64,000 nucleotides of DNA from an uncultured Sulfuricella sp. GTDB taxonomy: Bacteria; Pseudomonadota; Gammaproteobacteria; Burkholderiales; Sulfuricellaceae. The position numbers and the translations under genes were made by a program. Each line of letters starts with the position of its first letter. Within the stretch, counting starts at the first letter, position 1. This document shows positions 41,507 to 56,939 of this stretch, piece by piece. Under the pieces are notes generated by a model. That model did no database searches. It was not told the DNA's origin and worked only from the letters and a program-made list of their open reading frames with translations. The DNA is taken from positions 74,858 through 138,857 of the forward strand of contig CAZLJK010000003.1 in assembly GCA_964559825.1 (NCBI GenBank), in the 5' to 3' direction.

Positions 41507-42166
41507 ATGGCTGCCGTCACCCCCAAAAAGAAACTCTTCGAGAACTTCGCCCTGGTCGCGAAAGCGCTTGCCAGTGCCAATCGGCTTGAATTGCTGGAGG
41601 CTCTTGCACAAGGCGAGCGTGGCGTGGATGGGTTGGCGCAAGCCAGCGGCATGTCGGTAGCCAATACTTCCCACCACCTGCAAATCCTTCGCGGAGGCGG
41701 ACTGGTCCAGTCGCGCAAGGAGGGCACTCAGGTTATCTACAGTTTGACCGACGAAAAGGTGCTTGCACTGTTGGCGGGTATCCGCAATGTGGCTGAACAA
41801 CACTTGGCTGAAGTGGAGCGCATCGTCCGCGAGAACTTTGAGAGCCGTGACAACTTGACTCCCGTCCGTCGAGATGAGCTTCTAGGGTTGGTGAAATCCG
41901 GGGAGGCGATGGTGATTGATGTTCGTCCCTCCGCTGAATATGATGCCGGCCATATTGCAGGGGCGGTCAATATCCCGATTGAATCCCTGCCGGACCGGCT
42001 AAGCCAATTGCCTCACGATCAGGAGATTGTTGCCTACTGCCGCGGCCCTTATTGCATGCTGGCCTTCGATGCGGTTGAACAGCTGCGCCAGCTCGGCTAC
42101 CGTGCCCGCCGACTGGAAGACGGCTTCCCAGAGTGGAAGGTCGATCACCTTCCTGTCGGCCGCTAA
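41507..42166 (+). CDS. ArsR/SmtB transcription factor fused to a rhodanese domain
   Basis: KALASANRLELLEAL...ANTSHHLQIL HTH; rhodanese IDVRP..EYDAGHIAGA and YCRGPYC. Confidence 0.93.
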   Translation: MAAVTPKKKLFENFALVAKALASANRLELLEALAQGERGVDGLAQASGMSVANTSHHLQILRGGGLVQSRKEGTQVIYSLTDEKVLALLAGIRNVAEQHLAEVERIVRENFESRDNLTPVRRDELLGLVKSGEAMVIDVRPSAEYDAGHIAGAVNIPIESLPDRLSQLPHDQEIVAYCRGPYCMLAFDAVEQLRQLGYRARRLEDGFPEWKVDHLPVGR

Positions 42167-42317: not shown

Positions 42318-43055
42318 ATGTTTTTCAGGCAACGTTTAGCCAAGGAAGCCACCCTGTCCTATCTGCTCGGCTGCGGATCATGTGGTGTTTCGGTGGCGGT
42401 GGACCCGGTTGCGGGTGACGAGGATTGGTTTACCGAAGAGGCCGCCAGGCAAAACGTCAAGATCACCCATGTCTTTGACACCCACGTTCATGCCGATCAC
42501 TACTCGGGCGGGCGAGCGCTGGCCGAGAAGTCAGGCGCCCAATACTGCCTGCATGAAGCCAACCAGGGGCGGGTGCAGTTCCCTTTCCATGCGCTTTCGG
42601 ACGGGGAAACCATAGCGGTGGGCAACGTCGCAGTGAAGGTGATGCATACGCCCGGCCATACCCCTGACAGCCTATGCCTGACCGTCACCGACAAGCGCCG
42701 CAGCGCCGAACCCTGGTTCGTGCTCACCGGCGACACCCTGTTCGTGGGCAGCATCGGCCGCCCCGATCTGGCGGGCAAGGGCAGGGAATGGGCGGAGCAG
42801 CTGTTCGACAGCCTGCATGCGCAGCTGATGTCCCTGCCTGATGAAGTGGAGGTTTTTCCCGGCCATACCTCCGGCAGCGTTTGCGGTGCGGGAATTTCCG
42901 GCAAACCTTCCTCCACGGTTGGATTTGAAAAGCGTTTCAATACCGGCCTGAAAATGACCAGCAAGGACGAGTTCGTCAGTTACATTCTGTCCGACATCCC
43001 TCCCCGCCCGGCGGAAATGGAACGCATCGTGGCTGTCAATCTGGGGGCGGCATGA
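42318..43055 (+). CDS. Persulfide dioxygenase-like MBL-fold protein
   Basis: FDTHVHADH, HTPGHTP, LTGDTLFVGSIGRPDL, PGHTSGSVCG. Confidence 0.88.
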   Translation: MFFRQRLAKEATLSYLLGCGSCGVSVAVDPVAGDEDWFTEEAARQNVKITHVFDTHVHADHYSGGRALAEKSGAQYCLHEANQGRVQFPFHALSDGETIAVGNVAVKVMHTPGHTPDSLCLTVTDKRRSAEPWFVLTGDTLFVGSIGRPDLAGKGREWAEQLFDSLHAQLMSLPDEVEVFPGHTSGSVCGAGISGKPSSTVGFEKRFNTGLKMTSKDEFVSYILSDIPPRPAEMERIVAVNLGAA

Positions 43056-44371
43056 GCCACACTTTGCGCAATGGATACCAGGAGTACCGCCATGGTATTC
43101 GCGAAAACTTTGCGCAATTTTCCCACCAGCTGCTTCAGGTATTTCTGGTCGGAATGACCATCGGCATGATGCGTACCGTAGTGCCGGCTCTGGGCGAGAC
43201 CGAATTCGGCGTGCCCAAGGGCTCCTTCATGTTGCTGACCACCTTCGTGGTGGCTTTCGGCTTCGTCAAGGGCACGCTTAATTTCGTTGCCGGACGCCTG
43301 TCCGAGCGCATCGGGCGGCAAAAGGTGTTGCTGCTGGGCTGGGCAGCGGCATTGCCGATCCCGTTCATGATTCTTTATGCGCCCAACTGGAACTGGATTG
43401 TCGCCGCAACCGTGCTGCTGGGCGTGAATCAGGGCCTGACCTGGTCCATGACCCAAACCGCCAAGCTGGACATCACCCGGCCCGATCAAAGAGGCTTTGT
43501 GATCGGACTGAATGAATTCTCCGGCTATGTCGGTCTGGCAGTTGCAGGCATCATCACCGGTTACATGGCGACTGCCTATGGGCCGCGCCATGGGCTGCTG
43601 ATATTTGGCGTTGCGGTGATTATTCTGGCCGCGCTACTCACCATCCTGTGGGTCAAGGACACCTTGCCCTGGGCCAAGGCGGAAGGCGCCAAGCATGCCG
43701 CCGGGCAGTCCACCGGACCGAAACCGCGCTATCCCGCCAACATCGCCGACCAACCCACCACCTGGGAGGTATTCTCCCTCATGTCGTGGCGCGACAAGCG
43801 CATGGCTTCCATCAGCCAGGCAGGCCTGGTGGAGAAATTCGTGGATGCCCTGGTCTGGGTGTTTTATCCGGTTTTTCTTTACGGCCATGGACTATCCCTG
43901 GCCAGCATTGGCTGGGTGATCGGCGTATACGGCTTCGTCTGGGGCGGTTCCCAGTTCTTCACCGGCAAACTCTCCGACCATATCGGCAGGCAGAAGCCCA
44001 TCGTATGGGGCATGTGGTTATGCGGTGCAGGAGTGGCGATGATGCTCCTGGGCCAAGGCGTCGCCTGGTGGTCCTTGTCGGCAGCCGTGTCCGGCCTCGG
44101 CATGGCGCTGCTGTACCCCAACCTGTCAGCAGCCGTATCCGATATCGCCCACCCCAACTGGCGCGGCTCGGCCATCGGCATCTACCGCTTCTGGCGCGAC
44201 CTTGGCTATGGCATTGGGGCCTTGGCGCTAGGGATCGTGGCGAGCTTTAGCGGTGCCATCGAGGAAGCTTTCTGGTTCGTCGCTGTCTGCATGTTCCTCT
44301 CAGGTCTGGTCGTCCGGATTTGGGGAGAAGAAACTCATCCGCGGCTCAACCCCGCGCCCGCAATTAACTAA
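43052..44371 (+). CDS. MFS transporter
   Basis: About 12 hydrophobic segments; GRLSERIGRQK and GKLSDHIGRQK MFS motif A. Confidence 0.93.
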   Translation: MSHTLRNGYQEYRHGIRENFAQFSHQLLQVFLVGMTIGMMRTVVPALGETEFGVPKGSFMLLTTFVVAFGFVKGTLNFVAGRLSERIGRQKVLLLGWAAALPIPFMILYAPNWNWIVAATVLLGVNQGLTWSMTQTAKLDITRPDQRGFVIGLNEFSGYVGLAVAGIITGYMATAYGPRHGLLIFGVAVIILAALLTILWVKDTLPWAKAEGAKHAAGQSTGPKPRYPANIADQPTTWEVFSLMSWRDKRMASISQAGLVEKFVDALVWVFYPVFLYGHGLSLASIGWVIGVYGFVWGGSQFFTGKLSDHIGRQKPIVWGMWLCGAGVAMMLLGQGVAWWSLSAAVSGLGMALLYPNLSAAVSDIAHPNWRGSAIGIYRFWRDLGYGIGALALGIVASFSGAIEEAFWFVAVCMFLSGLVVRIWGEETHPRLNPAPAIN

Positions 44372-44383
44372 CAGGATCCCCTC

Positions 44384-44854
44384 ATGAAACCGGCTCAACT
44401 CATTTCCTCATTACTCCTCGTGGCATGCTCATCCCTGATGCTGCCGACAGTCTCCCTCGCCGCCGACAACGCGGCGGTAAAGGCCATGGGGGAGTATTTC
44501 GAATTCTCCGAATACGGCGGCGCCACCATCCTGCCCGAACAGATCCCGGCCGCAGACTGGAAAAATGTCTACGTGATCGACACCCGCGACGCCGACCAAT
44601 ACAAAAAGGCCCACATTCCCGGCGCCGTGAACATCGACTGGCGGCAAGTTCTCGGCCGCCGTGCCGAACTACCCGAAGACAGAATGGTGCTGGTGTACTG
44701 CAATTCCGGCACGCTCTCCGCTCAGGCCGGCTTGGCGCTGCGCGTGGCGGGCATGGAAAACGTGCGCATCTTGCAGGGCGGATTCAACGAGTGGAAAGCA
44801 AAGGGCGGGTTCGACGCCTACCGGCGCGCAATACGGAGTTCTGGCAAAAAGTAA
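44384..44854 (+). CDS. Exported single-domain rhodanese
   Basis: Signal peptide; IDTRD..QYKKAHIPGA; VLVYCNSGTLS active-site loop. Confidence 0.88.
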   Translation: MKPAQLISSLLLVACSSLMLPTVSLAADNAAVKAMGEYFEFSEYGGATILPEQIPAADWKNVYVIDTRDADQYKKAHIPGAVNIDWRQVLGRRAELPEDRMVLVYCNSGTLSAQAGLALRVAGMENVRILQGGFNEWKAKGGFDAYRRAIRSSGKK

Positions 44855-44899: not shown

Positions 44900-45340
44900 A
44901 TGTTGTTAAATAAATTCAAATTTTTACTTGCGCTGCTGCTGGCATTCGCGGCGCTTCCCAATGTTTCCTACGCTGGCGGCCCCCCGGGCCAGGCGGTGTT
45001 CAACGGCCAGAAAGTGCTTACCCTGATCGGTCGCGATCCGCCCGGGGTGCGTTGCAACAACAACATGCAGATTGCCGCCGAGTTGGCCAATATTTACAAG
45101 CTGCCGGTTCAGATCATCCCGGTGACATTCGCCGGCGCCGGCGCCAAGGCGCCGGCAGTGTACTACGGCGATCAGTTGGTCGCGGTGGACGAGGGCGAGC
45201 TGAACGGCATGGTGAGCTATGCCGAAATCGCCGATATCCTGGAAATCGAGGGTGTGCCGAAACAGGAGCAGCAGGGGCGCCTGATGGAAATCAAAAAAGA
45301 TTTCGACGGCCTCAAAGCGGCGATCAAGGACGTTAAATAG
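44900..45340 (+). CDS. Exported hypothetical protein with a single Cys (possible thioredoxin-like fold)
   Basis: Signal peptide, GGAG RBS, PPGVRCNNN motif, later KAPAVYYGD; fold is inference. Confidence 0.7.
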   Translation: MLLNKFKFLLALLLAFAALPNVSYAGGPPGQAVFNGQKVLTLIGRDPPGVRCNNNMQIAAELANIYKLPVQIIPVTFAGAGAKAPAVYYGDQLVAVDEGELNGMVSYAEIADILEIEGVPKQEQQGRLMEIKKDFDGLKAAIKDVK

Positions 45341-45370: not shown

Positions 45371-45754
45371 ATGCTTACGAGAACGCCGGGAAGGTTTTTG
45401 TTTGTGGTCACAGCGTTTCTGGCGCTGCTGACCAGCCAGGTCTTCAGCGGGGAACTGGCACAACTGAAGGGCAGGATCGTCGGGGAGAAATGCGCGCAAC
45501 TTGGAAAAATCGGCGAGTGCTATCTCAAGTGGGCAAATCCGATGGTGTTCTGGACTGAAGAAGGGGACTACTACGCCATCGACCTGTCCGGCAAGAGTGG
45601 CGTGGCCGAGGAAAAATTCGACGAAGCATTCGGTCAGGAAGTCGAGCTCCAGGGTGAAATTCTGAAAAAAGGGGAGAAGGAGCAGATACGGGTTGCACAA
45701 CTCAAAATTCTGAAACCCGTTGCCGGCAAAGAATTTTTCAAGGGATGACTGTAA
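45371..45754 (+). CDS. Exported small protein, candidate selenoprotein ending KEFFKG-Sec-L (stop at 45748 if UGA is not recoded)
   Basis: Signal peptide; C-x8-C; TGA 45746-45748 followed by CTG TAA and a SECIS-like hairpin. The CDS itself is well supported; Sec read-through is inferred. Confidence 0.7.
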
Positions 45755-45837: not shown

Positions 45838-46743
45838 ATGAGGTTTGGACATTGGCGATTCCAGCATTTTCTGCTTGCGGCCGTTCTTGCCCTGAGCGGC
45901 GCGGCAGCTTCGGCGGGGCAGAATTATGCCAGGCCCGAGCTTTTGATCGAAACCGAGGAGCTGGCGAAAATTCTCGGTCAGCCCAACGTCAGGCTAATTG
46001 ATGCCGCTGAAGGCGCTGGCTACCAGCGGGCGCATATTGCGGGCGCGGTCAATATTTACTATCTCGATCTCTCCAGGCTCGATGAGCGCAAGAAAAACGG
46101 TTTTCCCCTGAGCCAGGCTGAAGCGGAGAGGGTGTTCGGCGCTGCCGGGATCGATGCCGCCACGCAGGTCATCATCTACGATAGCGGTGAAGGAAATTCT
46201 GCATCGGGAGTGTGGTTTGTGCTCGACTTTTTCGGCCACAAAAACGTCAAGGTGCTAAATGGGGGGTTTCGCAAGTGGCTGAAGGAAAACCGCCTTGTAA
46301 CCCAGGACGTACCCGCACCCGAGAGGAAGAAATTTACCGCAAAGCCTGACGCCGGGCGCATCGTGACGCGAGCCTGGATGGAGAAAAATCTGCAAACCAA
46401 GGAAGCCATGGTGGTGGATACGCGCTCGTTCAATGAGTTTATTGGCAAGGACATGCGCCCAGGCGCCTCGCGTGGCGGACACATCCCCGGCGCGACCCAT
46501 CTCGAATGGACCCGGTTTTCAGACAAGCTGAATAGCTTCAAATCTGCCGAGCAAATCGAAAAGGCACTCAACCAGCGCGGCATCACCAGGGATACCAAGG
46601 TCGTCACCTATTGCCAGTCCGGCATTGGACGCTCTACCGATGTGGCTCTGGCGATGAAACTGATCGGCTACGACAATGTGGTCGAGTATTCAGGTTCATG
46701 GGAAGAGTGGTCGGTCGACCCGCGCTTACCTATCGAACGTTAA
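45838..46743 (+). CDS. Exported two-domain sulfurtransferase (rhodanese/MST family)
   Basis: AGGAG RBS + signal peptide; YQRAHIAGA, RGGHIPGA, VVTYCQSGIGRS, YSGSWEEW. Confidence 0.9.
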   Translation: MRFGHWRFQHFLLAAVLALSGAAASAGQNYARPELLIETEELAKILGQPNVRLIDAAEGAGYQRAHIAGAVNIYYLDLSRLDERKKNGFPLSQAEAERVFGAAGIDAATQVIIYDSGEGNSASGVWFVLDFFGHKNVKVLNGGFRKWLKENRLVTQDVPAPERKKFTAKPDAGRIVTRAWMEKNLQTKEAMVVDTRSFNEFIGKDMRPGASRGGHIPGATHLEWTRFSDKLNSFKSAEQIEKALNQRGITRDTKVVTYCQSGIGRSTDVALAMKLIGYDNVVEYSGSWEEWSVDPRLPIER

Positions 46744-46819: not shown

Positions 46820-47344
46820 ATGAAGTATCCGGTTCACGCGTTGCTGGCGCTGTTCGTCCTGCTTATCCCGGTCATGGCTACTGCGGGAGCGCTCACGCCC
46901 GTCAAGGGTGAGATGCTGGCGAGCGACTTCGTCACGAGGGATTTGGCGGGGCGCACGGTACGCTTCAATACCTTTCAGGGCAAGGTGGTGGTACTCAATT
47001 TCTGGGCCACCTGGTGCTCGAATTGCCGCAAGGAGATGCCCTCGATGGAGGTGCTCCATCAGTCTTATAAAAACCAGGGGCTGGTGGTGCTGGCGGTGTC
47101 GCAGGATCAGGTGAGCGCGCGCACCGTGCAGGCCTATGTGGATGAACTCAAGCTGAGCTTCCCGGTGTGGCACGACCGAGACGGGCTGATCGGCAGGCAG
47201 TACGGCATCTCCGGCGTACCGGTGTCGTATCTGATCGGGGCGGACGGGCGCATCGCCTATCGTGTGACCGGCGATTACGACTGGTTCGGGGCGGAGGCGC
47301 GCGCGGCGGTAGAGACGCTGCTCGCGGCGCGCGCTTCACGTTAA
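46820..47344 (+). CDS. TlpA/ResA-like thiol-disulfide oxidoreductase
   Basis: Signal/TM segment; GKVVVLNFWATWCSNCRKEMP; GVPVSYLIG. Confidence 0.92.
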   Translation: MKYPVHALLALFVLLIPVMATAGALTPVKGEMLASDFVTRDLAGRTVRFNTFQGKVVVLNFWATWCSNCRKEMPSMEVLHQSYKNQGLVVLAVSQDQVSARTVQAYVDELKLSFPVWHDRDGLIGRQYGISGVPVSYLIGADGRIAYRVTGDYDWFGAEARAAVETLLAARASR

Positions 47345-47380: not shown

Positions 47381-50134
47381 ATGGTCGACAGACGTGATTT
47401 TCTGAAACTTTCCGGCACGGGCCTGTGCGCATTCGCGCTCGGCCTGTCCGAGGAATTGCAGGCGCGGATTCTCTCGGTGGATGATCCGCTGGTCTCCTAC
47501 CCCGACCGCTCGTGGGAGGATTTCTACCGCAAGGAGTTCGTCGGGACGCGCGGCAATGCTCAGGGTTTTGCCTTTCACTGCTCCAACTGCCAGGGCAACT
47601 GCGCTTTTCGCGTGTTCGCCAAGGATGGCGTCGTGACGCGCGAGGAACAGCTTGCGCAATACCCGCAGATCAGCCCGGACATTCCCGACCCCAATCCGCG
47701 CGGCTGCAACAAGGGAACCATCCACTCCCAGGCCATGTACGAGAAGGATCGGCTGCTCTACCCGCTCAAGCGTGCGGGCGCTCGCGGAGAGGGCAAGTGG
47801 CAGCGCATTTCCTGGGATCAGGCCATGGGTGAAATTGCGGAGAAGATCGTGGACACCCTGGCGGAACACGGTCCGGGCGGACTCCTGCTTTACGCCGGCA
47901 CCGGGATCGTGTCGCAGGGCCGGCGCGCGGGGCCGTTGCGCCTGGGGTCGCTGCTCGGTTCGACTCGCCTCTACCCATCCAGCGCGGTCGGCGACATGTT
48001 TACCGGCGCCGCGCTGGCCTATGGCATTCCCAACGTGGGCACTTCGCTCGATGCCTGGTTCGAGATGGACTACATCGTGTTGTGGGGCTTCAATCCCAAC
48101 GTGACCCGCATTCCGGACGCCCATTATCTTTGGGAAGCGAAGTGGCGCGGCGCCAAAATCGTGGTGATCTCGCCGGACTATAATCCCACCGCCATCCACG
48201 CCGACTGGTGGATACCCATCACGCCCGGCTCCGACAGTTTCCTCGCCATGTCGCTGGTGCATGTAGTGCTGAAAGAAAAGCTGTACAAGGAAGACTTTAT
48301 CCGCGAGCAGACCGACCTGCCCTTCCTGGTGCGCGAGGATACGGGCATGCTCCTGCGCCTCTCCGACCTGCGCAAGGATAGCAAGAACGATGTATTTTAT
48401 TGCTGGGACGAAGTGAGCGGTGCAGCCGTCGTCATGCCCGGTTCCCAGGGGCATTTCAGGAAGACCCTGCGGCTGGGCGCGATTCGTCCGGCGCTTACCG
48501 GTCGCTACGAGGTGAAGGGCCACGACGGCAAGATGATCCCGGTCACCACCGCGTTCGAAAAAGTACGCGCCGAAGCGGAAAAATACTCACCCGAGAAAAC
48601 GCAGGCGCAGACCGGCATTTCCCCTGCGCTGGTGACCAAGCTGGCACGCGAATATGCCGCGGCGCATGACCCCGGCCTCACCATCGGCTTCTCGCTGCAT
48701 AAGTACGCCTGGGGCATACTCACCTGCTGGGCGCAAGCCCTGTTTTGCGCGCTCACCGGCCATGACGCGGTGGACACCGAGCATCAGTGGAGCCTGGGCG
48801 GCCTCGGGCCAATGACCGCGCCTAAACCCGCGCGCTTCGAATCCGGGTTTCTGGGCGAGTGGTTTTCGGGGCGCATGTGGGAGACTTTCGAGCGTCACTA
48901 CGCCGGGGAAGAATTCAAGCAGCGCACCGGCATCACACCGGACGATCTGGTGAAACTGGCCGAGCGCTCGCGCGATGACAAGTGGCACACCAATTATGTC
49001 GAACCGAAAATCCGCATCCTGTTCGGCGACAATATTTTCCGCCGTAACAAGTCCTCGGAGCATTACCGCAAGACCGTGCTGGATGCGACCGAACTTTACG
49101 TCAACGTCAACTTTCGTATGGATTCCTCGGCGGAATACGCCGACTACGTGCTGCCCGCCATCAGCCACTACGAAGGCTGGGACATACGCGGCGAGGTCGG
49201 TTATCACCGTTACGCCAATCTGACCGTGCCGCCAAAGGATTTGAAGCCGGTCGGCGAGACCAAGCCGGAGTGGGAGATATGCCGACTGCTGGCCGAACAT
49301 ATCGAGGCGAAAGCGAAGCTGCGGGGTCTCGGCCAGATCAAGGACCCGCTTTTCACCATGAAGAAGGATGGCAAGGACATCCCGATCACGCGCGATCTCG
49401 ATACGCTGGTTTTCGATTTCACCATGCAGGGCAAGGTCAACACCGACAAGGATGTGGTGAAGTGGCAGATCGAGAATGTCCCCGCTTTCCAGCCATGGAA
49501 ATTCGAGGATGCGATCGAGCGCGGCTTTCTCGTACTTAACAACAGCGCCGGTCTGACCTCGCCCCTGTATGCCGACAAGCCTTACCGTTCGTTCGAGGAG
49601 CAATTCCACCTCAAGCGCCCCTACCCGACGCTCTCCGGTCGCCAGCAGTTCTACATCGACCAGGAAACATTCGCCAAACTCGGTTGCAGCGTGCCCACGG
49701 CGCGGGAAGGACTGCACCCCTCGCGCTTCCCGCTCAAGTTTTATTCGCCGCATGCGCGCTGGGGCATTCACTCCACCTGGCGCAGCAACAAATACATGCT
49801 GCGCATGCAGCGGGGCGTGCCCCATCTCAACCTCAATCCGCAGGATGCCACCCAGCGCGGCATCCAGGATGGCGACACGGTGCGCGTTTTCAATGATATC
49901 GGCGAATTCCGGGCGATGGCCAGGATCATGCCCAGCCTGCAACCCGGCACGCTCATGATGGATCATGCCTGGGAGCCGCATCAGTTCCTCAAACGCATGG
50001 GCATGGATGCGCCGGTCGCCGGGTTGCTCTCTCCGCTCGAGCTTGCGGGCGGCTGGGGTCATCTCAAATTCGGCGCGGAATGGGACGGTAACCAGCTTGC
50101 CCACGAATCCACTGTTGACGTAGCGAAAGTCTGA
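47381..50134 (+). CDS. DMSO reductase family type II molybdoenzyme, alpha subunit (Tat-exported)
   Basis: DRRDFLK Tat motif; FS0 motif HCSNCQGNC...PRGCNKG; RLLYPLKRAGARGEGKWQRISWDQA; candidate Asp ligand in SAVGDMFTG; C-terminal SPHARWGIHSTW. Confidence 0.93.
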   Translation: MVDRRDFLKLSGTGLCAFALGLSEELQARILSVDDPLVSYPDRSWEDFYRKEFVGTRGNAQGFAFHCSNCQGNCAFRVFAKDGVVTREEQLAQYPQISPDIPDPNPRGCNKGTIHSQAMYEKDRLLYPLKRAGARGEGKWQRISWDQAMGEIAEKIVDTLAEHGPGGLLLYAGTGIVSQGRRAGPLRLGSLLGSTRLYPSSAVGDMFTGAALAYGIPNVGTSLDAWFEMDYIVLWGFNPNVTRIPDAHYLWEAKWRGAKIVVISPDYNPTAIHADWWIPITPGSDSFLAMSLVHVVLKEKLYKEDFIREQTDLPFLVREDTGMLLRLSDLRKDSKNDVFYCWDEVSGAAVVMPGSQGHFRKTLRLGAIRPALTGRYEVKGHDGKMIPVTTAFEKVRAEAEKYSPEKTQAQTGISPALVTKLAREYAAAHDPGLTIGFSLHKYAWGILTCWAQALFCALTGHDAVDTEHQWSLGGLGPMTAPKPARFESGFLGEWFSGRMWETFERHYAGEEFKQRTGITPDDLVKLAERSRDDKWHTNYVEPKIRILFGDNIFRRNKSSEHYRKTVLDATELYVNVNFRMDSSAEYADYVLPAISHYEGWDIRGEVGYHRYANLTVPPKDLKPVGETKPEWEICRLLAEHIEAKAKLRGLGQIKDPLFTMKKDGKDIPITRDLDTLVFDFTMQGKVNTDKDVVKWQIENVPAFQPWKFEDAIERGFLVLNNSAGLTSPLYADKPYRSFEEQFHLKRPYPTLSGRQQFYIDQETFAKLGCSVPTAREGLHPSRFPLKFYSPHARWGIHSTWRSNKYMLRMQRGVPHLNLNPQDATQRGIQDGDTVRVFNDIGEFRAMARIMPSLQPGTLMMDHAWEPHQFLKRMGMDAPVAGLLSPLELAGGWGHLKFGAEWDGNQLAHESTVDVAKV

Positions 50135-50144
50135 GGAAGAAGAA

Positions 50145-51305
50145 ATGTCGAAACGACAACTAGCCATGGTGATGGATCTCAACAAGTGCATCGGTTGCCA
50201 GACCTGCACCTCGGCCTGCAAGACCCAATGGACCAACCGCAACGGGCGCGAATACATGTACTGGAACAATGTCGAGACCCGTCCGGGCCAAGGCTATCCG
50301 CGCAAGTGGGAGGAAGCGGGCGGGGGTTTCGACGCCGCCGGGCACTTGAAACCCGGGCGCATCCCTGATCTGCGGCGCGACTACGGTGCGGCGTTCGACA
50401 TGAACTACCTGGAAGCGCTCAATCCTCGCGGACATGACCAGCCTCCCTCCTTCGACGGCGCGGAACACCCGCATCTGGCGCCCGTGGAGATGCCGGTGAA
50501 CGGCCCCAACTGGGACGAGGATCAGGGCGCGGGCGTATACCCTAACAGCTATCATTTTTACCTGCCGCGCATTTGCAATCACTGCACCCATCCGGCCTGC
50601 GTTGCGGCCTGTCCGCGCAAGGCGATCTACAAGCGCGAGGAGGACGGCATCGTGCTCGTCGATCAGTCGCGCTGCCGTGGTTACCAGCATTGTGTCGAGG
50701 CCTGTCCATACAAGAAGATCTATTTCAATCCGACCTTCAAGCGTTCGGAGAAGTGCATTTTCTGCTTCCCGCGCATCGAGCAGGGATTGCCGCCGGCATG
50801 CGCGCAGCAGTGCGTGGGGCGGATTCGCTTCGTCGGCTACCTCGACGACGTGGAAAGCCCGGTGTACAAACTGGTGGAAAAATGGAAAGTGGCGCTGCCG
50901 CTACACGCCGAGTTCGGCACCCAGCCGAATGTGTACTACGTCCCGCCCCTGTCGCCGTCGAGCTACGATGCCGAGGGCAATCTGACGGGCGAGCGGCGCA
51001 TCCCGGATGAAGTCCTGGTCAATTTTTTCGGGCCGCGCGTGCCGGAAGTGCTGATGCTGCTGGAGCAGGAGCGGGAAAAAAAGCGCCGGGGCGAAAAATC
51101 CGAGCTCATGGAGACGCTCATTGCCTATCGCCATGAGGAGATGTTCAAGCTCGATGCCGCGTATTACCAGAAGGCCAAGGCGGCTCCCGCGCCCAGGAGT
51201 CAACGGGGCATTCCTGTCCTGGCATGGGAAGACCGGGAGGGCTGGGAAGAATTCAGAAAAACGCGCGAAATCGCCGCTGGCAATTTTCCGGGAGAGGTGG
51301 CATGA
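50145..51305 (+). CDS. DMSO reductase family type II, iron-sulfur beta subunit (NarH/EbdB/SerB-like)
   Basis: DLNKCIGCQTCTSACK, YLPRICNHCTHPACVAACP, CRGYQHCVEACPYKK, KCIFCFPR...CAQQCVGRIR. Confidence 0.95.
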   Translation: MSKRQLAMVMDLNKCIGCQTCTSACKTQWTNRNGREYMYWNNVETRPGQGYPRKWEEAGGGFDAAGHLKPGRIPDLRRDYGAAFDMNYLEALNPRGHDQPPSFDGAEHPHLAPVEMPVNGPNWDEDQGAGVYPNSYHFYLPRICNHCTHPACVAACPRKAIYKREEDGIVLVDQSRCRGYQHCVEACPYKKIYFNPTFKRSEKCIFCFPRIEQGLPPACAQQCVGRIRFVGYLDDVESPVYKLVEKWKVALPLHAEFGTQPNVYYVPPLSPSSYDAEGNLTGERRIPDEVLVNFFGPRVPEVLMLLEQEREKKRRGEKSELMETLIAYRHEEMFKLDAAYYQKAKAAPAPRSQRGIPVLAWEDREGWEEFRKTREIAAGNFPGEVA

Positions 51306-52360
51306 AGCGGACTGCGCAACGATTCGGGTGGCTGTGGGCCGCGCTGGCCGTGGCGCTGGCGATGAATTTCCCCTTTGCGTCGGCCGGGGACGCGGCGACT
51401 TTCATCAGCGCAAAAAAGAGCGGAGCCGAGCCGCCACTTGACCCGCTGGATCCGGCCTGGGAGAAGCTTGATCCGACCCCGGTCGCGCTCTACCCGCAGG
51501 CTAGCATTGCACCGGGATCTGATCAAGATGGCGTGTTGTACGCCAGGGTGCGCGCGCTTTACAGCGGCAAAACCCTGGCCCTGCACGTCGAGTGGCCCGA
51601 TGCCAAGCCATCGGCGACCCGCTCAATCGGCGAGTTTGCCGACGGTATCGCGGTGCAATGGCCGCTACGCTATGGTTCTGGCGTGAGTTTGCCTTATGTC
51701 GGCATGGGTCATGGCGGCGTAGCGGCGGCGCTGTGGCTATGGCGCGCGGACGGTTCCGTGGAGACGCTCGCGGCGGAAGGCTTTGGCACCCTGACGGCGC
51801 AACCGTCCGGTGGCGTAAAAGCCAGCGGGGCGTGGCGTGACGGCAAGTGGCAGGTCGTCTTCACGCGCTCCACCGCTCCCTCGGCGAACGGGCAGCATGT
51901 CCGTTTCGACCCCGCGAAACAGGGGATCGTGCCCTTGGCGCTGGCGCTGTGGAGCGGAGAGGCGCAGGAACGCGACGGCAAGAAGCGCCTGTCCGCCTGG
52001 CAGGCTTTGCGTTTTGAGAAGGCTGCCGCGAACGAGGCTTATCTCAGGTCGTTTGCCGCTGTGGCAAACGGCAATGCCGAAAATGGCAAGCGGCTGATGG
52101 CGGAAAAGGGCTGCGTCGGCTGCCACAGCTTTCCGGGCAATGCCGCGCAGCCGACGGTGGGTCCGAACCTCACTTACGTCGGCGGCATTCATCATGCCGA
52201 TTACCTGCTCGAATCGATCACAAACCCGTCCCTCATCATTGTCCCTGGCAAGACCTATTCCACGGCGCAGAATGGCAAGCGGGTTTCGCTGATGCCGCCG
52301 TTTCAGGGCACGAAACAGGAAAGGCAGGATATTGCCGCGTTTCTCCAGATGCTACGGTGA
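51302..52360 (+). CDS. Type II gamma subunit (EbdC-like heme b domain) fused to a C-terminal cytochrome c
   Basis: Signal peptide; VRALYSG.TLALHVEWPD, FADGIAVQWP, YVGMG, AEGFGTL, W.DGKWQVVFTR, KKRLSAW; then GCVGCH CxxCH and SLMPPF. Confidence 0.85.
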   Translation: MKRTAQRFGWLWAALAVALAMNFPFASAGDAATFISAKKSGAEPPLDPLDPAWEKLDPTPVALYPQASIAPGSDQDGVLYARVRALYSGKTLALHVEWPDAKPSATRSIGEFADGIAVQWPLRYGSGVSLPYVGMGHGGVAAALWLWRADGSVETLAAEGFGTLTAQPSGGVKASGAWRDGKWQVVFTRSTAPSANGQHVRFDPAKQGIVPLALALWSGEAQERDGKKRLSAWQALRFEKAAANEAYLRSFAAVANGNAENGKRLMAEKGCVGCHSFPGNAAQPTVGPNLTYVGGIHHADYLLESITNPSLIIVPGKTYSTAQNGKRVSLMPPFQGTKQERQDIAAFLQMLR

Positions 52361-52407: not shown

Positions 52408-52638
52408 ATGTGGGGCTATTATGGCAATTATGGTTGGGGGAGCGGCGGCATGGTGCCTATGCTGCTGATGTGGACGGTGATTATTCTGGTTATCGCGGTA
52501 CTGGCGAAGTGGATATTCGGGAAGCCGACCGAAACCACGCATGGCAAGACTGCGCTCGAAATTCTCAAAGAGCGTTATGCGCGGGGTGAGATCGATCGTG
52601 AGGAATTTGATCAAAAGAGGCGGGATATTGGGGGCTGA
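52408..52638 (+). CDS. Small membrane protein with a SHOCT domain
   Basis: MWGYYG..GGM, one TM segment, ALEILKERYARGEIDREEF. Confidence 0.88.
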   Translation: MWGYYGNYGWGSGGMVPMLLMWTVIILVIAVLAKWIFGKPTETTHGKTALEILKERYARGEIDREEFDQKRRDIGG

Positions 52639-52642
52639 GCCC

Positions 52643-54036
52643 ATGGTGAATACTGAATCCTTGCGGCGCCTTGCGGCGCTGCCCGCAGTGTATGAAGTTC
52701 TCGCTCACCCGCAGATTGAGGCGCTTGCGGAAAATATCGACCACGACCTGCTGGTGACCGGGATACAGTCTAGTCTGGCGCTCCACCGCGAGGCGCTGCG
52801 GGCTGATCCACAGCATCGTTCGCCCAGCGCGGATGAACTCGCGCAGGAAGTCGCGCTGAAGGTGGCAAAATGGCATCAGCCCGGACTCGTGCCGGTCATC
52901 AATCTCACCGGTACGCTGCTGCACACCAACCTCGGACGTGCGCCGCTCTCGGCGGAGGCGGTAGCGACGCTGGTGCGCGCCGCAGGCACGGTGAATCTCG
53001 AGTATGACCTCGTTGCCGGCAAGCGCGGCGAGCGCGATACGCAAGTGGAAGCGCTGCTGACCCGCCTGACCGGCGCCGAAGCCGCGACCGTGGTCAACAA
53101 CAATGCCGCAGCTTTGTATCTCGCGCTCAATACGTTGGCCAACAAGCGCCGTGTGGTGGTGAGCCGGGGCGAACTGGTGGAAATCGGCGACAGTTTCCGC
53201 GTGCCGGACATCATCCGGGCCAGCGGTTGCCGGCTGATGGAAGTCGGCACTACCAACCGCACCCACCTCGCCGACTACCGGCAGGCACTGGATGAAGGTG
53301 GTACTTTGCTGCTCAAGGTGCATACCAGCAACTACCGCGTGGTGGGGTTCACCAGCGAAGTGCCGCTGGTCGATCTGGTGAAGCTTGGCAGGGAGAGAAA
53401 TATTCCGGTGGTGGTGGATCTGGGTAGCGGGGCGCTGGTGGATGTGAGTCGCTATGGGGTTCTTGGAGAGCCTTTGGTACAGGATGCGGTGCGCGCCGGG
53501 GCGGACCTGGTGACCTTCAGCGGCGACAAGCTGTTGGGCGGCCCGCAGGCCGGGGTGATGGTCGGGCGCACGCCTTTTATCAAGCGTGTCCGGCGTAATC
53601 CCATGAAGCGCGCGCTGCGTTGCGACAAGCTTGTTCTGGGCGCGCTCGACGCGACCCTGGCCGCCTATCTCTCGCCGCAGACGCTGGAGCGGAAACTTCC
53701 CACCTACCGCATGCTGTCGCGTAGCCTGGATGAGATCGAAGCGCTGGCGCGGCAGGTGCAACCCCATCTCGAACGCTGGGCGCAGGGACGCGCGCGAGCC
53801 GAACTGGTTCCCACGCGCGCGCAAGTGGGCAGCGGTGCTGCGCCGGATGCCACGCTCCCGTCGCTGGCTTTTGCGCTCACGCCGCTGAAGGGGGTTTCGG
53901 CAGCGCAGCTCGCGCGCGCCCTGCGCCAGCTCTCGCCGCCGGTAATCGGGCGCCTGCACGACGGCGGACTACTGCTCGACCTGCGCGCTCTGCTCGATGC
54001 CGAGCCGCTCATCCGTGCATTCAATGGGACTCTGCC

Positions 54037-54040
<4 letters not shown>
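52643..54040 (+). CDS. selA: L-seryl-tRNA(Sec) selenium transferase
   Basis: PVINLTGTLLHTNLGRAPL, VNNNAAA, SRGELVEIG, EVGTTNRTH, PLP lysine motif FSGDKLLGGPQAG. Confidence 0.96.
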
Positions 54041-55943
<1,903 letters not shown>

Positions 55944-55947
<4 letters not shown>

Positions 55948-56453
55948 ACAGGATACTCAAAGGACTGGCCGTCCTGCTGGTGTTTTTTCCGACACTGCTT
56001 CTGGCTACGCCGGCTAAGGAGTCACTCCTCGATCTGGAGGGGCAGCCCCATACGCTCGACGAATATACGGGGCGGGGGAAATGGCTGGTAGTCACGGTCT
56101 GGGCTTCCGATTGCGCGGTGTGCAACCGGGAAATCCACGAGTTGATGGTTTTTCATCAGGCGCACCGGGAAACGGATGCCAGCGTGCTCGGTATTTCAGT
56201 GGATGGGCTTGGCGGCAGGCAAAACGCGTTGGCATTCATCAAACGGCACGGGGTAAACTTCCCCAATCTGCTGGATGATGGAAGCGCATTCAAGGCGATT
56301 TATCTGCGCGCTACCGCTCGCCCCTGGTTCGGAGGGACGCCCATGAACCTGGTCTATGCGCCTTCCGGGGAACTGCTGGCGCGACGCATCGGCCCGTTGG
56401 GCAAGGCCGAACTCGAGGCGTTCATCAAGCAGGCAGGAGAACGAAAGCAATAG
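55944..56453 (+). CDS. TlpA-like exported thiol-disulfide oxidoreductase
   Basis: Signal peptide; GKWLVVTVWASDCAVCNRE; GGTPMNLVY. Confidence 0.88.
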
Positions 56454-56469: not shown

Positions 56470-56566
56470 GGAGAGGATGATCGTCCGGTTGGCATCCGCG
56501 GGCTTCAAACCCGTTGGGAGGCAGGTTTCCTGTCTCTGGTAGGTTCGACTCCTACCCTCTCCACCA
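56470..56566 (+). tRNA. selC: tRNA-Sec (UCA), apparent 7/5 (12-bp) type
   Basis: Anticodon loop CTTCAAA; 9-bp variable arm; GTAGG-TTCGACT-CCTAC T-arm; GGAGAGG/CCTCTCC acceptor stem; ends ACCA; lies next to selAB. Confidence 0.92.
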
Positions 56567-56588: not shown

Positions 56589-56939
56589 ATGAAAACTCTT
56601 TTCATACTCAACGATCCGCCCTACGGCACAGAGCGCAGCTACAACGGCTTCCGCCTGGCGCGGGCGCTGGCGAAGCACGAGGACAACGAAATCCGCGTGT
56701 TCCTGCTGGGCGATGCGGCCCTGTGTGCCAAGGCGGGGCAGAAGGTGCCGGAAGGCTATTACAACATCGAATTCTTCGCTCAGAGCATTTTGAAGCGTGG
56801 CGGCGAAATCGGCGTGTGCGGGGTATGCATGGAAGCGCGGGGTCTGAAAGACGAGGAACTCATCCCCGGTTGTCAGCACAGCACGCTGGAGCACCTGGCC
56901 GAATGGACCATGTGGGCGGAGAAAGTGCTCACTTTCTGA
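56589..56939 (+). CDS. DsrE/YchN-family sulfur relay protein
   Basis: ILNDPPYGTERSYNGFRLA, FLLGDAA, VCGVCMEARG. Confidence 0.9.
   Translation: MKTLFILNDPPYGTERSYNGFRLARALAKHEDNEIRVFLLGDAALCAKAGQKVPEGYYNIEFFAQSILKRGGEIGVCGVCMEARGLKDEELIPGCQHSTLEHLAEWTMWAEKVLTF

Follow-up and report, generated by a model that had tools for sequence, protein, structure and literature searches.

The question raised by the locus described here is what a type II molybdoenzyme related to dimethylsulfide (DMS) dehydrogenase may be doing among genes for rhodaneses and small exported proteins. The locus lies in a stretch of 64,000 nucleotides (hereafter the window) from an uncultured Sulfuricella sp., a member of the Sulfuricellaceae, and its central gene (47381..50134, +) encodes a catalytic (alpha) subunit of 917 amino acids (aa), identified by its twin-arginine translocation (Tat) signal, the ligand motif of its first iron-sulfur cluster (FS0), its Mo-ligand Asp205 and its family match. 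Judged from the sequences of its subunits, the enzyme is a soluble periplasmic alpha-beta-gamma oxidoreductase with an Asp-ligated molybdenum bis(pyranopterin guanine dinucleotide) cofactor (Mo-bisPGD), and phylogeny places its alpha subunit in a family that is sister to the DdhA clade and lies outside the DdhA, ClrA/SerA, PcrA, NarG and EbdA clades. A known enzyme architecture has here been combined with a new set of partners and probably with a new substrate. By analogy with the action of SoxCD on SoxY, we tentatively read the enzyme as a periplasmic sulfur dehydrogenase that would act on sulfane sulfur held on a Cys or selenocysteine (Sec) tail and pass the electrons to cytochrome c, a reading to which we give somewhat less than an even chance.

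The alpha open reading frame (ORF) is intact, with an ATG start and a TGA end, and its product begins with a Tat signal (MVDRRDFLK, with the core RRDFLK). The protein matches TIGR03479 over residues 4-914 with 988.8 bits, a small margin above the curated cut-off of 984.75, as well as the Pfam families Molybdopterin and Molydop_binding and, weakly, Molybdop_Fe4S4. Residues 66-74 read HCSNCQGNC, and with C109 of NPRGCNKG as the fourth Cys of FS0 the pattern becomes H-x3-C-x3-C-x34-C (H66, C70, C74 and C109), with an extra Cys, C67, beside the His. HMMER alignments bring H66, C70 and C74 onto the FS0 ligands of PcrA (4ydd), EbdA (2ivf) and NarG, and D205, located in SAVGDMFTG, onto D170 of PcrA, D223 of EbdA and the corresponding Asp of NarG; H66, C67, C70, C74, C109 and D205 are all invariant in an alignment of 27 sequences. 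The two signatures HC[SVA]NC[QKR]GNC and A[VI]GDMF[TSP]G are present in all 111 homologues in which the N-terminus is present (50-93% identity), and hence these motifs are conserved and not due to chance. A His ligand to FS0 and an Asp ligand to Mo are universal across the type II subfamily (PMC8840923), and D205 is the predicted Mo ligand of alpha. The first-pass annotation, which had pointed out the ORF with its FS0 motif and had proposed the Asp in SAVGDMFTG as the Mo ligand, is borne out on both counts. Its further remark that the surroundings of this Asp resemble those in EbdA is also confirmed by the alignment, in which alpha has AVGDMFTG, EbdA DIGDTYMG, DdhA DVGDLNTG and ClrA MTGDLYTG, as against YDWY[GS]D in PcrA and the Haloferax pNarG. 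The gate residues F164, Y165, W167 and Y168 of PcrA align with P199, S200, A202 and V203 of alpha.

Among the characterised enzymes the closest to alpha is DdhA of Rhodovulum sulfidophilum, with 50.2% identity over the full length (877 bits), followed by ClrA of Ideonella dechloratans (40%), EbdA (37% and 28% over two segments), PcrA (34%) and Haloferax pNarG (33%). P0217 served as the DdhA anchor for these comparisons, and its 90% cluster includes BAQ67645.1, which is annotated as "dimethylsulfide dehydrogenase subunit alpha"; the ClrA anchor was taken from an annotated plasmid, and those for PcrA and EbdA were rebuilt from PDB alignments, that of EbdA without residues 470-598. A maximum-likelihood tree produced by IQ-TREE from 64 sequences and 931 columns, with NarG/PcrA as the outgroup and with ultrafast bootstrap and SH-aLRT (approximate likelihood ratio test) supports, recovers the present family as monophyletic (100/99), recovers the DdhA clade (100/100), unites the two as sisters (100/99) and leaves the ClrA clade outside both of them (100/100); a quick tree agrees with this placement. 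SerA of Thauera selenatis was not included in the tree and is placed from the literature only, where it groups with Ideonella ClrA (PMC3735179). Based upon identity to the window alpha, the family can be divided into subfamily A (at least 67%), subfamily B (about 57%), a Nitrospinota/Nitrospirota subgroup (about 50%) and an Aquificota/Myxococcota subgroup (about 44%).

These results bear on several earlier statements. The phylogeny that the first-pass annotation had called for does not place alpha within the DdhA clade at high identity, and the statement that the enzyme is neither a NarG-type nitrate reductase nor a PcrA-type perchlorate reductase agrees with the identities of 33-34%, with the separate clade and with the motifs, alpha having SSAVGD instead of YDWYGD and lacking HxVNCTG[SA]C. 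It is likewise separated from the ClrA/SerA clade (100/100), and a Nitrotoga-type nitrite oxidoreductase was ruled out by the size and motif criteria of PMC6050957 as well as by the tree. The description of the clade as unassigned is right insofar as the clade is uncharacterised, but it can be placed as the well-supported sister of DdhA. The idea that the FS0 motif is an oddity of this clade, however, had to be given up. The extra Cys is, by sequence comparison, not new in itself: it is already found in the characterised DdhA of R. sulfidophilum (HCINCLGNC), and HC..C.GNC is shared by 70 of the 120 proteins that were found with a ClrA query, these 70 representing the DdhA-like clade, whereas Ideonella ClrA (HSNGCVAGC), PcrA, pNarG and EbdA lack it. 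Alpha thus has the HC-x-N/D-C-x-GNC motif of the DdhA clade while standing outside that clade, and the extra Cys beside the FS0 His marks a DdhA superclade. Cys67 may belong to the second sphere of FS0 or serve as an alternative ligand; FS0 has never been seen by electron paramagnetic resonance in DMS dehydrogenase (PMC8840923).

The genes that follow alpha encode the remaining subunits of a type II enzyme. The beta subunit (50145..51305, +) carries four Fe-S clusters and matches TIGR03478 with 527.7 bits (cut-off 480.7) and Pfam Fer4_11. The gamma subunit (51302..52360, +), which has a signal for the general secretory pathway, combines an EbdC-type heme b domain (EB_dh, 90.2 bits against a cut-off of 33.3) with a C-terminal cytochrome c domain (Cytochrom_C, 39 bits), although its match to TIGR03477 (129.6 bits) is below the cut-off of 169.85. 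Its cytochrome c domain contains CVGCH followed by SLMPP, and the DNA was inspected for CVGCH as well as for the start codon. Of the 58 gamma ORFs of the family that are complete, 48 show this fusion to cytochrome c, which DdhC and ClrC lack. Together with the family model, the FS0 pattern and the Asp, these partners make the enzyme a member of the type II family in all the features tested but one, viz. that a NarJ/TorD-type delta chaperone was found by Pfam and NCBIfam profile searches neither in the operon nor anywhere in the 64-kb window. The rest of the 3.35-Mb genome contains three PF02613 chaperone genes, and other Mo-enzyme matches occur on the contigs of two of these. In tblastn searches of the related loci with three delta/TorD-type queries, matches were obtained in 9 loci with ClrD, in 4 with DdhD and in 1 with the Haloferax TorD-type protein, a locus of the DdhA clade (L084) being among them.

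The sequence contains a complete series of redox centres, viz. the Mo-bisPGD ligand, FS0, the four Fe-S clusters, heme b and heme c, together with export signals. In the relatives heme b has a high potential, +256 mV in ethylbenzene dehydrogenase and +324 mV in DMS dehydrogenase (PMC8840923), so that the reduction of low-potential sulfur compounds would be unfavourable. This high potential, combined with the exit of electrons through a fused cytochrome c, argues for the dehydrogenase direction, acting on reduced sulfur.

The most widely conserved feature of the surroundings of alpha is its association with sulfur-transfer proteins. We have compared 3 loci obtained by exact protein look-up and 80 named genome loci, scoring neighbours by tblastn. 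A periplasmic tandem (two-domain) rhodanese sulfurtransferase, represented in the window by 45838..46743 (+; Pfam Rhodanese x2), is found together with alpha in almost all loci whose flanks are long enough (84 loci); its range extends from the Betaproteobacteria to the Aquificota and includes the Hydrogenothermaceae Sulfurihydrogenibium and Persephonella. A YeeE-family gene is frequent in these loci, and its Persephonella copy matches best the thiosulfate transporter TsuA, below the cut-off of that model. Three further components are typical of the proteobacterial loci: a TlpA/ResA-like periplasmic thiol:disulfide oxidoreductase (46820..47344, +; WATWCSNC) directly upstream of alpha; an exported 146-aa protein (44900..45340, +), which is conserved in the module, with orthologues 54-95% identical in most proteobacterial loci, and which has no match in Pfam or NCBIfam; and an ArsR-type helix-turn-helix protein fused to a rhodanese domain (41507..42166, +), with HTH_5+Rhodanese orthologues in loci L001 and L004, which is likely a sulfane-sulfur-responsive regulator of the island. 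An exported single-domain rhodanese (44384..44854, +), recognised by its sequence and signal peptide, is also conserved in the loci.

In view of these partners, the possibility that the enzyme is a true dehydrogenase of DMS or of another thioether or organosulfur compound, with the sulfur-relay genes being functionally unrelated neighbours, appears improbable to us. Such an enzyme would account for DdhA being the closest characterised relative with the same FS0 motif, for the passing of the TIGR03479 cut-off and for the JGI annotation, in which many members of the family are called "dimethylsulfide dehydrogenase subunit alpha". The family nevertheless lies outside the DdhA clade, and its operon is unlike ddhABDC in having no delta gene, a gamma-cytochrome c fusion, and rhodanese and tail-protein genes, and in being controlled by an ArsR regulator of persulfide type where ddhABDC has two-component regulators. 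The flanks of the Mo Asp also differ consistently, S201 and M206 replacing the T and L of DdhA (DMF against DLN in R. sulfidophilum). Furthermore, the hosts are chemolithoautotrophic sulfur oxidisers from groundwater and hot springs, and the retention of the rhodanese linkage in different phyla speaks for a functional coupling. Since the family is automatically named DMS dehydrogenase (in the style of KEGG and JGI) while being situated outside the DdhA clade, surveys that employ ddhA as a marker of DMS oxidation may miscount genes of sulfur oxidisers, and metagenomic ddhA counts are possibly inflated. Our full-text literature search found no description of this clade or of its tail proteins.

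The same neighbours can be read differently if the substrate is a free, small sulfur oxyanion, the enzyme oxidising sulfite to sulfate, or thiosulfate. The rhodaneses would then split thiosulfate, yielding sulfite and a protein-bound sulfane sulfur, the Mo enzyme would oxidise the sulfite, and the tail proteins and YeeE would route the sulfane sulfur to cytoplasmic Dsr/Hdr. We regard this as unlikely, though it draws on several of the observations above: no neighbours are conserved more widely than rhodanese and the TsuA-like thiosulfate transporter, the electron exit to cytochrome c suits an oxidation, a Phs/Psr/Ttr-type enzyme adjoins the module in Aquificota, and small oxyanions, among them nitrite/nitrate, selenate and chlorate, are the typical substrates of type II enzymes (PMC10100899). 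It leaves unexplained, however, the position of the tail-protein genes in the Aquificota, immediately next to alpha and gamma. In addition, several of the hosts already have SorA-like matches of the sulfite-oxidase family (below the SoxC cut-off), and the conserved sulfite oxidase of sulfur oxidisers that lack SoxCD is SoeABC (PMC6397845).

The tail proteins are what our preferred reading, a dehydrogenase of carrier-bound sulfane sulfur, chiefly turns on. In the window, a small exported protein of 125 aa (45371..45754, +; no Pfam match) ends in Gly-Sec-Leu when its gene is read through an in-frame UGA (FFKG-Sec-Leu-stop, encoded by GGA TGA CTG TAA), an ending recognised from those of its orthologues. 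These end in FFKG-U-L-stop in the subfamily A loci that carry the gene and in Thioalkalivibrio denitrificans, in FFKG-C-L-stop in subfamily B, and in SK[AS]CL-stop in the Nitrospinota and in Thermodesulfovibrio; Sec and Cys thus exchange at the same position across loci. The interpretation of the UGA at 45746 as part of an ordinary ATGA stop/start overlap is ruled out by the orthologues ending in FFKG-U-L or FFKG-C-L. In a scan of small ORFs on the strand of alpha, an ORF ending in CL or UL was present in 67 of the 84 loci, and CL was the commonest C-terminal dipeptide among the 1620 small ORFs. In the Aquificota the tail is a Gly-rich arm, GGGGGCL, attached to a rhodanese domain directly upstream of alpha. 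No similarity to SoxY or SoxZ was detected in the tail proteins. The GGGGGCL and FFKGCL tails recall two arms that carry substrate, GGCGG of SoxY and the G-C-V tail of DsrC with its penultimate Cys. We consider the small tail protein a candidate for a sulfur carrier with a swinging arm.

A second class of tail proteins was also observed, in which a single-domain rhodanese ends in RRGR[PA]G-Sec-Leu or in ARGPAG-(Sec/Cys)-Leu. The GGGGGCL proteins of the Aquificota are the equivalent of this class, and the RRGR[PA]G-Sec-Leu ending occurs in several subfamily A loci. Examples are located at L001:8980-9423, in L008, L009, L010, L022 and L027 about 1 kb upstream of alpha, and in L018, L019 and L066. 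The window itself contains no tailed rhodanese.

The Sec-containing tails provide an explanation for the selenium genes that surround the enzyme. Downstream of gamma are located selA and selB (52643..55947, +; TIGR00474 with 551 bits and TIGR00475 with 370 bits) and a tRNA-Sec with anticodon TCA (56470..56566, +; ARAGORN), and selA, selB and selD recur next to the enzyme in related loci. In the fetched loci, sel genes accompany 7 of the 21 Sec-form loci as compared with 0 of the 48 Cys-only loci (Fisher p = 1e-4, kinship being ignored). The adjacent selA, selB and tRNA-Sec thus serve the Sec-tailed partner of the operon and are no pointer to selenium as the substrate; selenium as a substrate, either of a selenate/selenite reductase or in assimilation, was given up as the main interpretation on the grounds that the partner is Sec/Cys-tailed and that the sel genes stand beside the Sec forms only. 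The first-pass annotation had taken the neighbourhood to indicate sulfur or selenium chemistry rather than the hydroxylation of hydrocarbons; the sulfur part of this view is supported by the genes found, while the selenium part gives way to the Sec-tailed partner. As regards the selA gene itself, the ORF as listed opens at 52541 and overlaps the preceding gene, while the TIGR00474 match begins at residue 45 of the ORF, and the true start is probably near 52643.

The selenium genes also have a bearing on a further possibility, that of a respiratory reductase of a high-potential oxyanion (chlorate, selenate or a similar compound) which would be fed through its cytochrome c domain in the manner of Ser and Clr, whose electrons come from soluble cytochromes c. 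Some Sulfurihydrogenibium species respire selenate, selenium-related genes are adjacent to the enzyme, ClrA is 40% identical to alpha, and group-2 chlorate reductases belong to the sister DdhA clade (PMC3735179). The sel genes, however, are accounted for by the Sec-tailed partner, the regulator appears to be of the sulfane-sulfur ArsR-rhodanese type, the rhodaneses and tail carriers would be left without a role, and no chlorite dismutase is present among the called genes of the loci examined, no systematic search for it having been made. We consider a reductase of this kind very improbable. The confidence that remains beyond the sulfur dehydrogenase, the oxyanion dehydrogenase, the DMS dehydrogenase and this reductase we reserve for something not considered here.

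The organisms in which the family occurs provide a background for the sulfur dehydrogenase. The alpha of the window shares 98% identity with a partial copy from Sulfurimicrobium and 94% with copies from Sulfuricella, and the named loci come mostly from sulfur oxidisers, viz. Sulfuricella, Sulfurimicrobium, Sulfuritalea, Sulfurisoma, Thiobacillus, Thiohalomonas, Thioalkalivibrio denitrificans and the Hydrogenothermaceae. SoxB scored above its curated cut-off in 36 of 51 family-bearing genomes and SoxC above its own in 1 of 50, these being raw co-occurrence counts in which shared ancestry is not factored in. The window genome has SoxB and a single alpha copy and shows no match to the SoxC family; in the Sulfuricellaceae, Sox is known to be used in the absence of SoxCD (PMC6397845). 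A test of anti-correlation with SoxC across the order was dropped, since the 5 occurrences in 401 genomes gave it no power, and was replaced by the survey of family-bearing genomes. An arsenite candidate in Thioalkalivibrio proved to be SoeABC, which is unrelated. Paralogues were also seen: two loci (L026 and L028) that represent one Sulfurimicrobium metagenome-assembled genome (MAG) bring together a subfamily A copy (98%) and a subfamily B copy (58%), and one genome of the same genus as the window organism (G018:C31) has, on the same contig, a 94% copy and, a few kb away, a type II enzyme of 43% identity.

According to the mechanism that we propose for the sulfur dehydrogenase, the co-encoded periplasmic rhodaneses would load sulfane sulfur covalently onto the penultimate Cys or Sec of the exported tail proteins (-G-C/U-L-COOH), and this bound sulfur would be the substrate of alpha. 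At the Mo centre an oxo group may be transferred to the reduced sulfur atom, by analogy with DdhA, which converts DMS to DMSO by transferring a water-derived oxygen atom to divalent sulfur, and the electrons would pass from FS0-FS4 to heme b, to the enzyme's own cytochrome c domain and on to the respiratory chain. The TlpA-like thiol oxidoreductase may then reset the carriers. The whole would be a functional parallel to SoxCD acting on SoxY-Cys-S-S-, achieved through an unrelated molybdoenzyme. One may go further and suppose an unrecognised pathway, in which a DdhA-like enzyme oxygenates a persulfide or selenosulfide on a swinging arm, with Sec as a superior sulfur-carrying nucleophile, and in which the module is a non-homologous replacement of SoxCD/SoxYZ in sulfur oxidisers with a truncated Sox system, extending from Proteobacteria to Aquificota; we hold this wider proposal to be possible but rather doubtful, at something like one chance in three.

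Several observations weigh against our preferred reading. Homology alone predicts little here, because the substrates within the DdhA clade itself differ, being DMS in one case and chlorate, for group-2 ClrA, in the other (PMC3735179). The absence of SoxC is confounded by phylogeny, and oxidisers of the Dsr/Hdr type lack SoxCD anyway (PMC6397845). The module is patchy: only 5 of the 401 genomes sampled from the order contain it, and 3 of the 6 listed genomes of the same genus do not have it, so that it is an accessory rather than a core pathway. The docking partners of the tail proteins could be the rhodaneses or the transporter and not the Mo enzyme. Lastly, an AlphaFold2 model of alpha has a mean confidence score (pLDDT) of 71.7, with values below 50 at the cofactor loops (residues 63-75, 90-120 and 198-208), and since it is unreliable at these loops it supports no argument from the substrate funnel or from docking. 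The best Foldseek matches of this model were PcrA (TM score 0.75) and EbdA (TM score 0.70), along with NarG and Nxr.

In its overall arrangement, the island runs from the ArsR-rhodanese gene through genes for a metallo-beta-lactamase (MBL)-fold protein, a major facilitator superfamily (MFS) transporter, the single rhodanese, the 146-aa and 125-aa proteins, the tandem rhodanese and the TlpA-like protein to alpha, beta and gamma, and then through a SHOCT-domain gene, selA, selB, a thioredoxin-fold gene and tRNA-Sec to a DsrE-like gene. The MBL-fold gene, which is persulfide-dioxygenase-like, and the MFS transporter gene (42318-44371), 3' of the ArsR-rhodanese gene, form a pair that is shared by one other locus only (L058), and this pair is not a fixed component of the module. 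The SHOCT gene (52408-52638), 3' of gamma, specifies a small membrane protein and is found in the same position in L001; SHOCT and ArsR genes also adjoin the Ideonella clr operon (L086:11983-12180 listed). The second exported protein of thioredoxin fold (55944..56453, +; WASDCAVC) matches Pfam AhpC-TSA and Redoxin and has orthologues in L001, L006 and L009, and the DsrE/DsrF-like sulfur-relay protein (56589..56939, +; Pfam DsrE, 90 bits) recurs in related loci. In four loci from Aquificota and a Myxococcaceae MAG (L072:15844-20656, and also L071, L077 and L080), another operon for a Tat-exported molybdoenzyme comes after the module, and in it genes for an FeS protein (TtrB-like) and an NrfD-like protein precede that for a 1090-aa catalytic subunit of Phs/Psr/Ttr type, none of them reaching a family cut-off.

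The significance of this module lies in the handling of periplasmic sulfane sulfur by oxidisers that lack SoxCD, for which a set of Mo enzyme, rhodanese and carrier found in such organisms is a concrete candidate. If the proposal is true, a carrier that alternates between Cys and Sec would represent a new use of selenocysteine, and it would explain the small "private" sel sets that are present in islands of this kind.

Among known systems, DdhABC of R. sulfidophilum is the nearest to the present enzyme. Both are periplasmic type II Mo-bisPGD enzymes with the extra-Cys FS0 motif and an xVGDxxTG sequence, and both combine a four-cluster beta with an EbdC-type heme b gamma, the electrons of DdhABC going to a c-type cytochrome (PMC3735179). 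The ddh locus (L092), however, has the order ddhA-B-D-C with a NarJ-type delta, two-component regulators and MipZ/ParA genes, and it contains no rhodanese, TlpA, YeeE or tail proteins; DdhC is without cytochrome c, and DdhA belongs to the sister clade and differs in the residues beside the Mo Asp. ClrABC of Ideonella dechloratans and, by the literature, SerABC of Thauera selenatis resemble the present enzyme in architecture, in matching TIGR03479, in being periplasmic and in having an Asp-ligated Mo, and the clr locus shares with the window nearby ArsR and SHOCT genes. ClrA differs in its separate clade and in its FS0 motif without the extra Cys, and its locus includes cld along with genes for a delta chaperone and for a cytochrome c that is separate. 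PsrABC and Sud of Wolinella pair a periplasmic rhodanese-type carrier with a molybdoenzyme of the DMSO-reductase superfamily, as in the present module; Psr is unlike alpha in belonging to another subfamily, with a Cys-ligated Mo and an NrfD-type membrane anchor, and in working as a quinol-linked enzyme in the reductase direction. SoxC is a sulfite-oxidase-family protein (Mo domain TIGR04555), from a superfamily other than that of alpha and not homologous to it, and the tails are unlike SoxY and SoxZ in sequence. In the function that we propose, however, SoxCD and SoxYZ offer the closest parallel, as there too a periplasmic Mo enzyme together with a c-type cytochrome oxidises sulfane sulfur bound to the Cys of a carrier, and in SoxYZ this Cys lies near the C-terminus on a flexible, Gly-containing tail (PMC6397845, PMC5336275).

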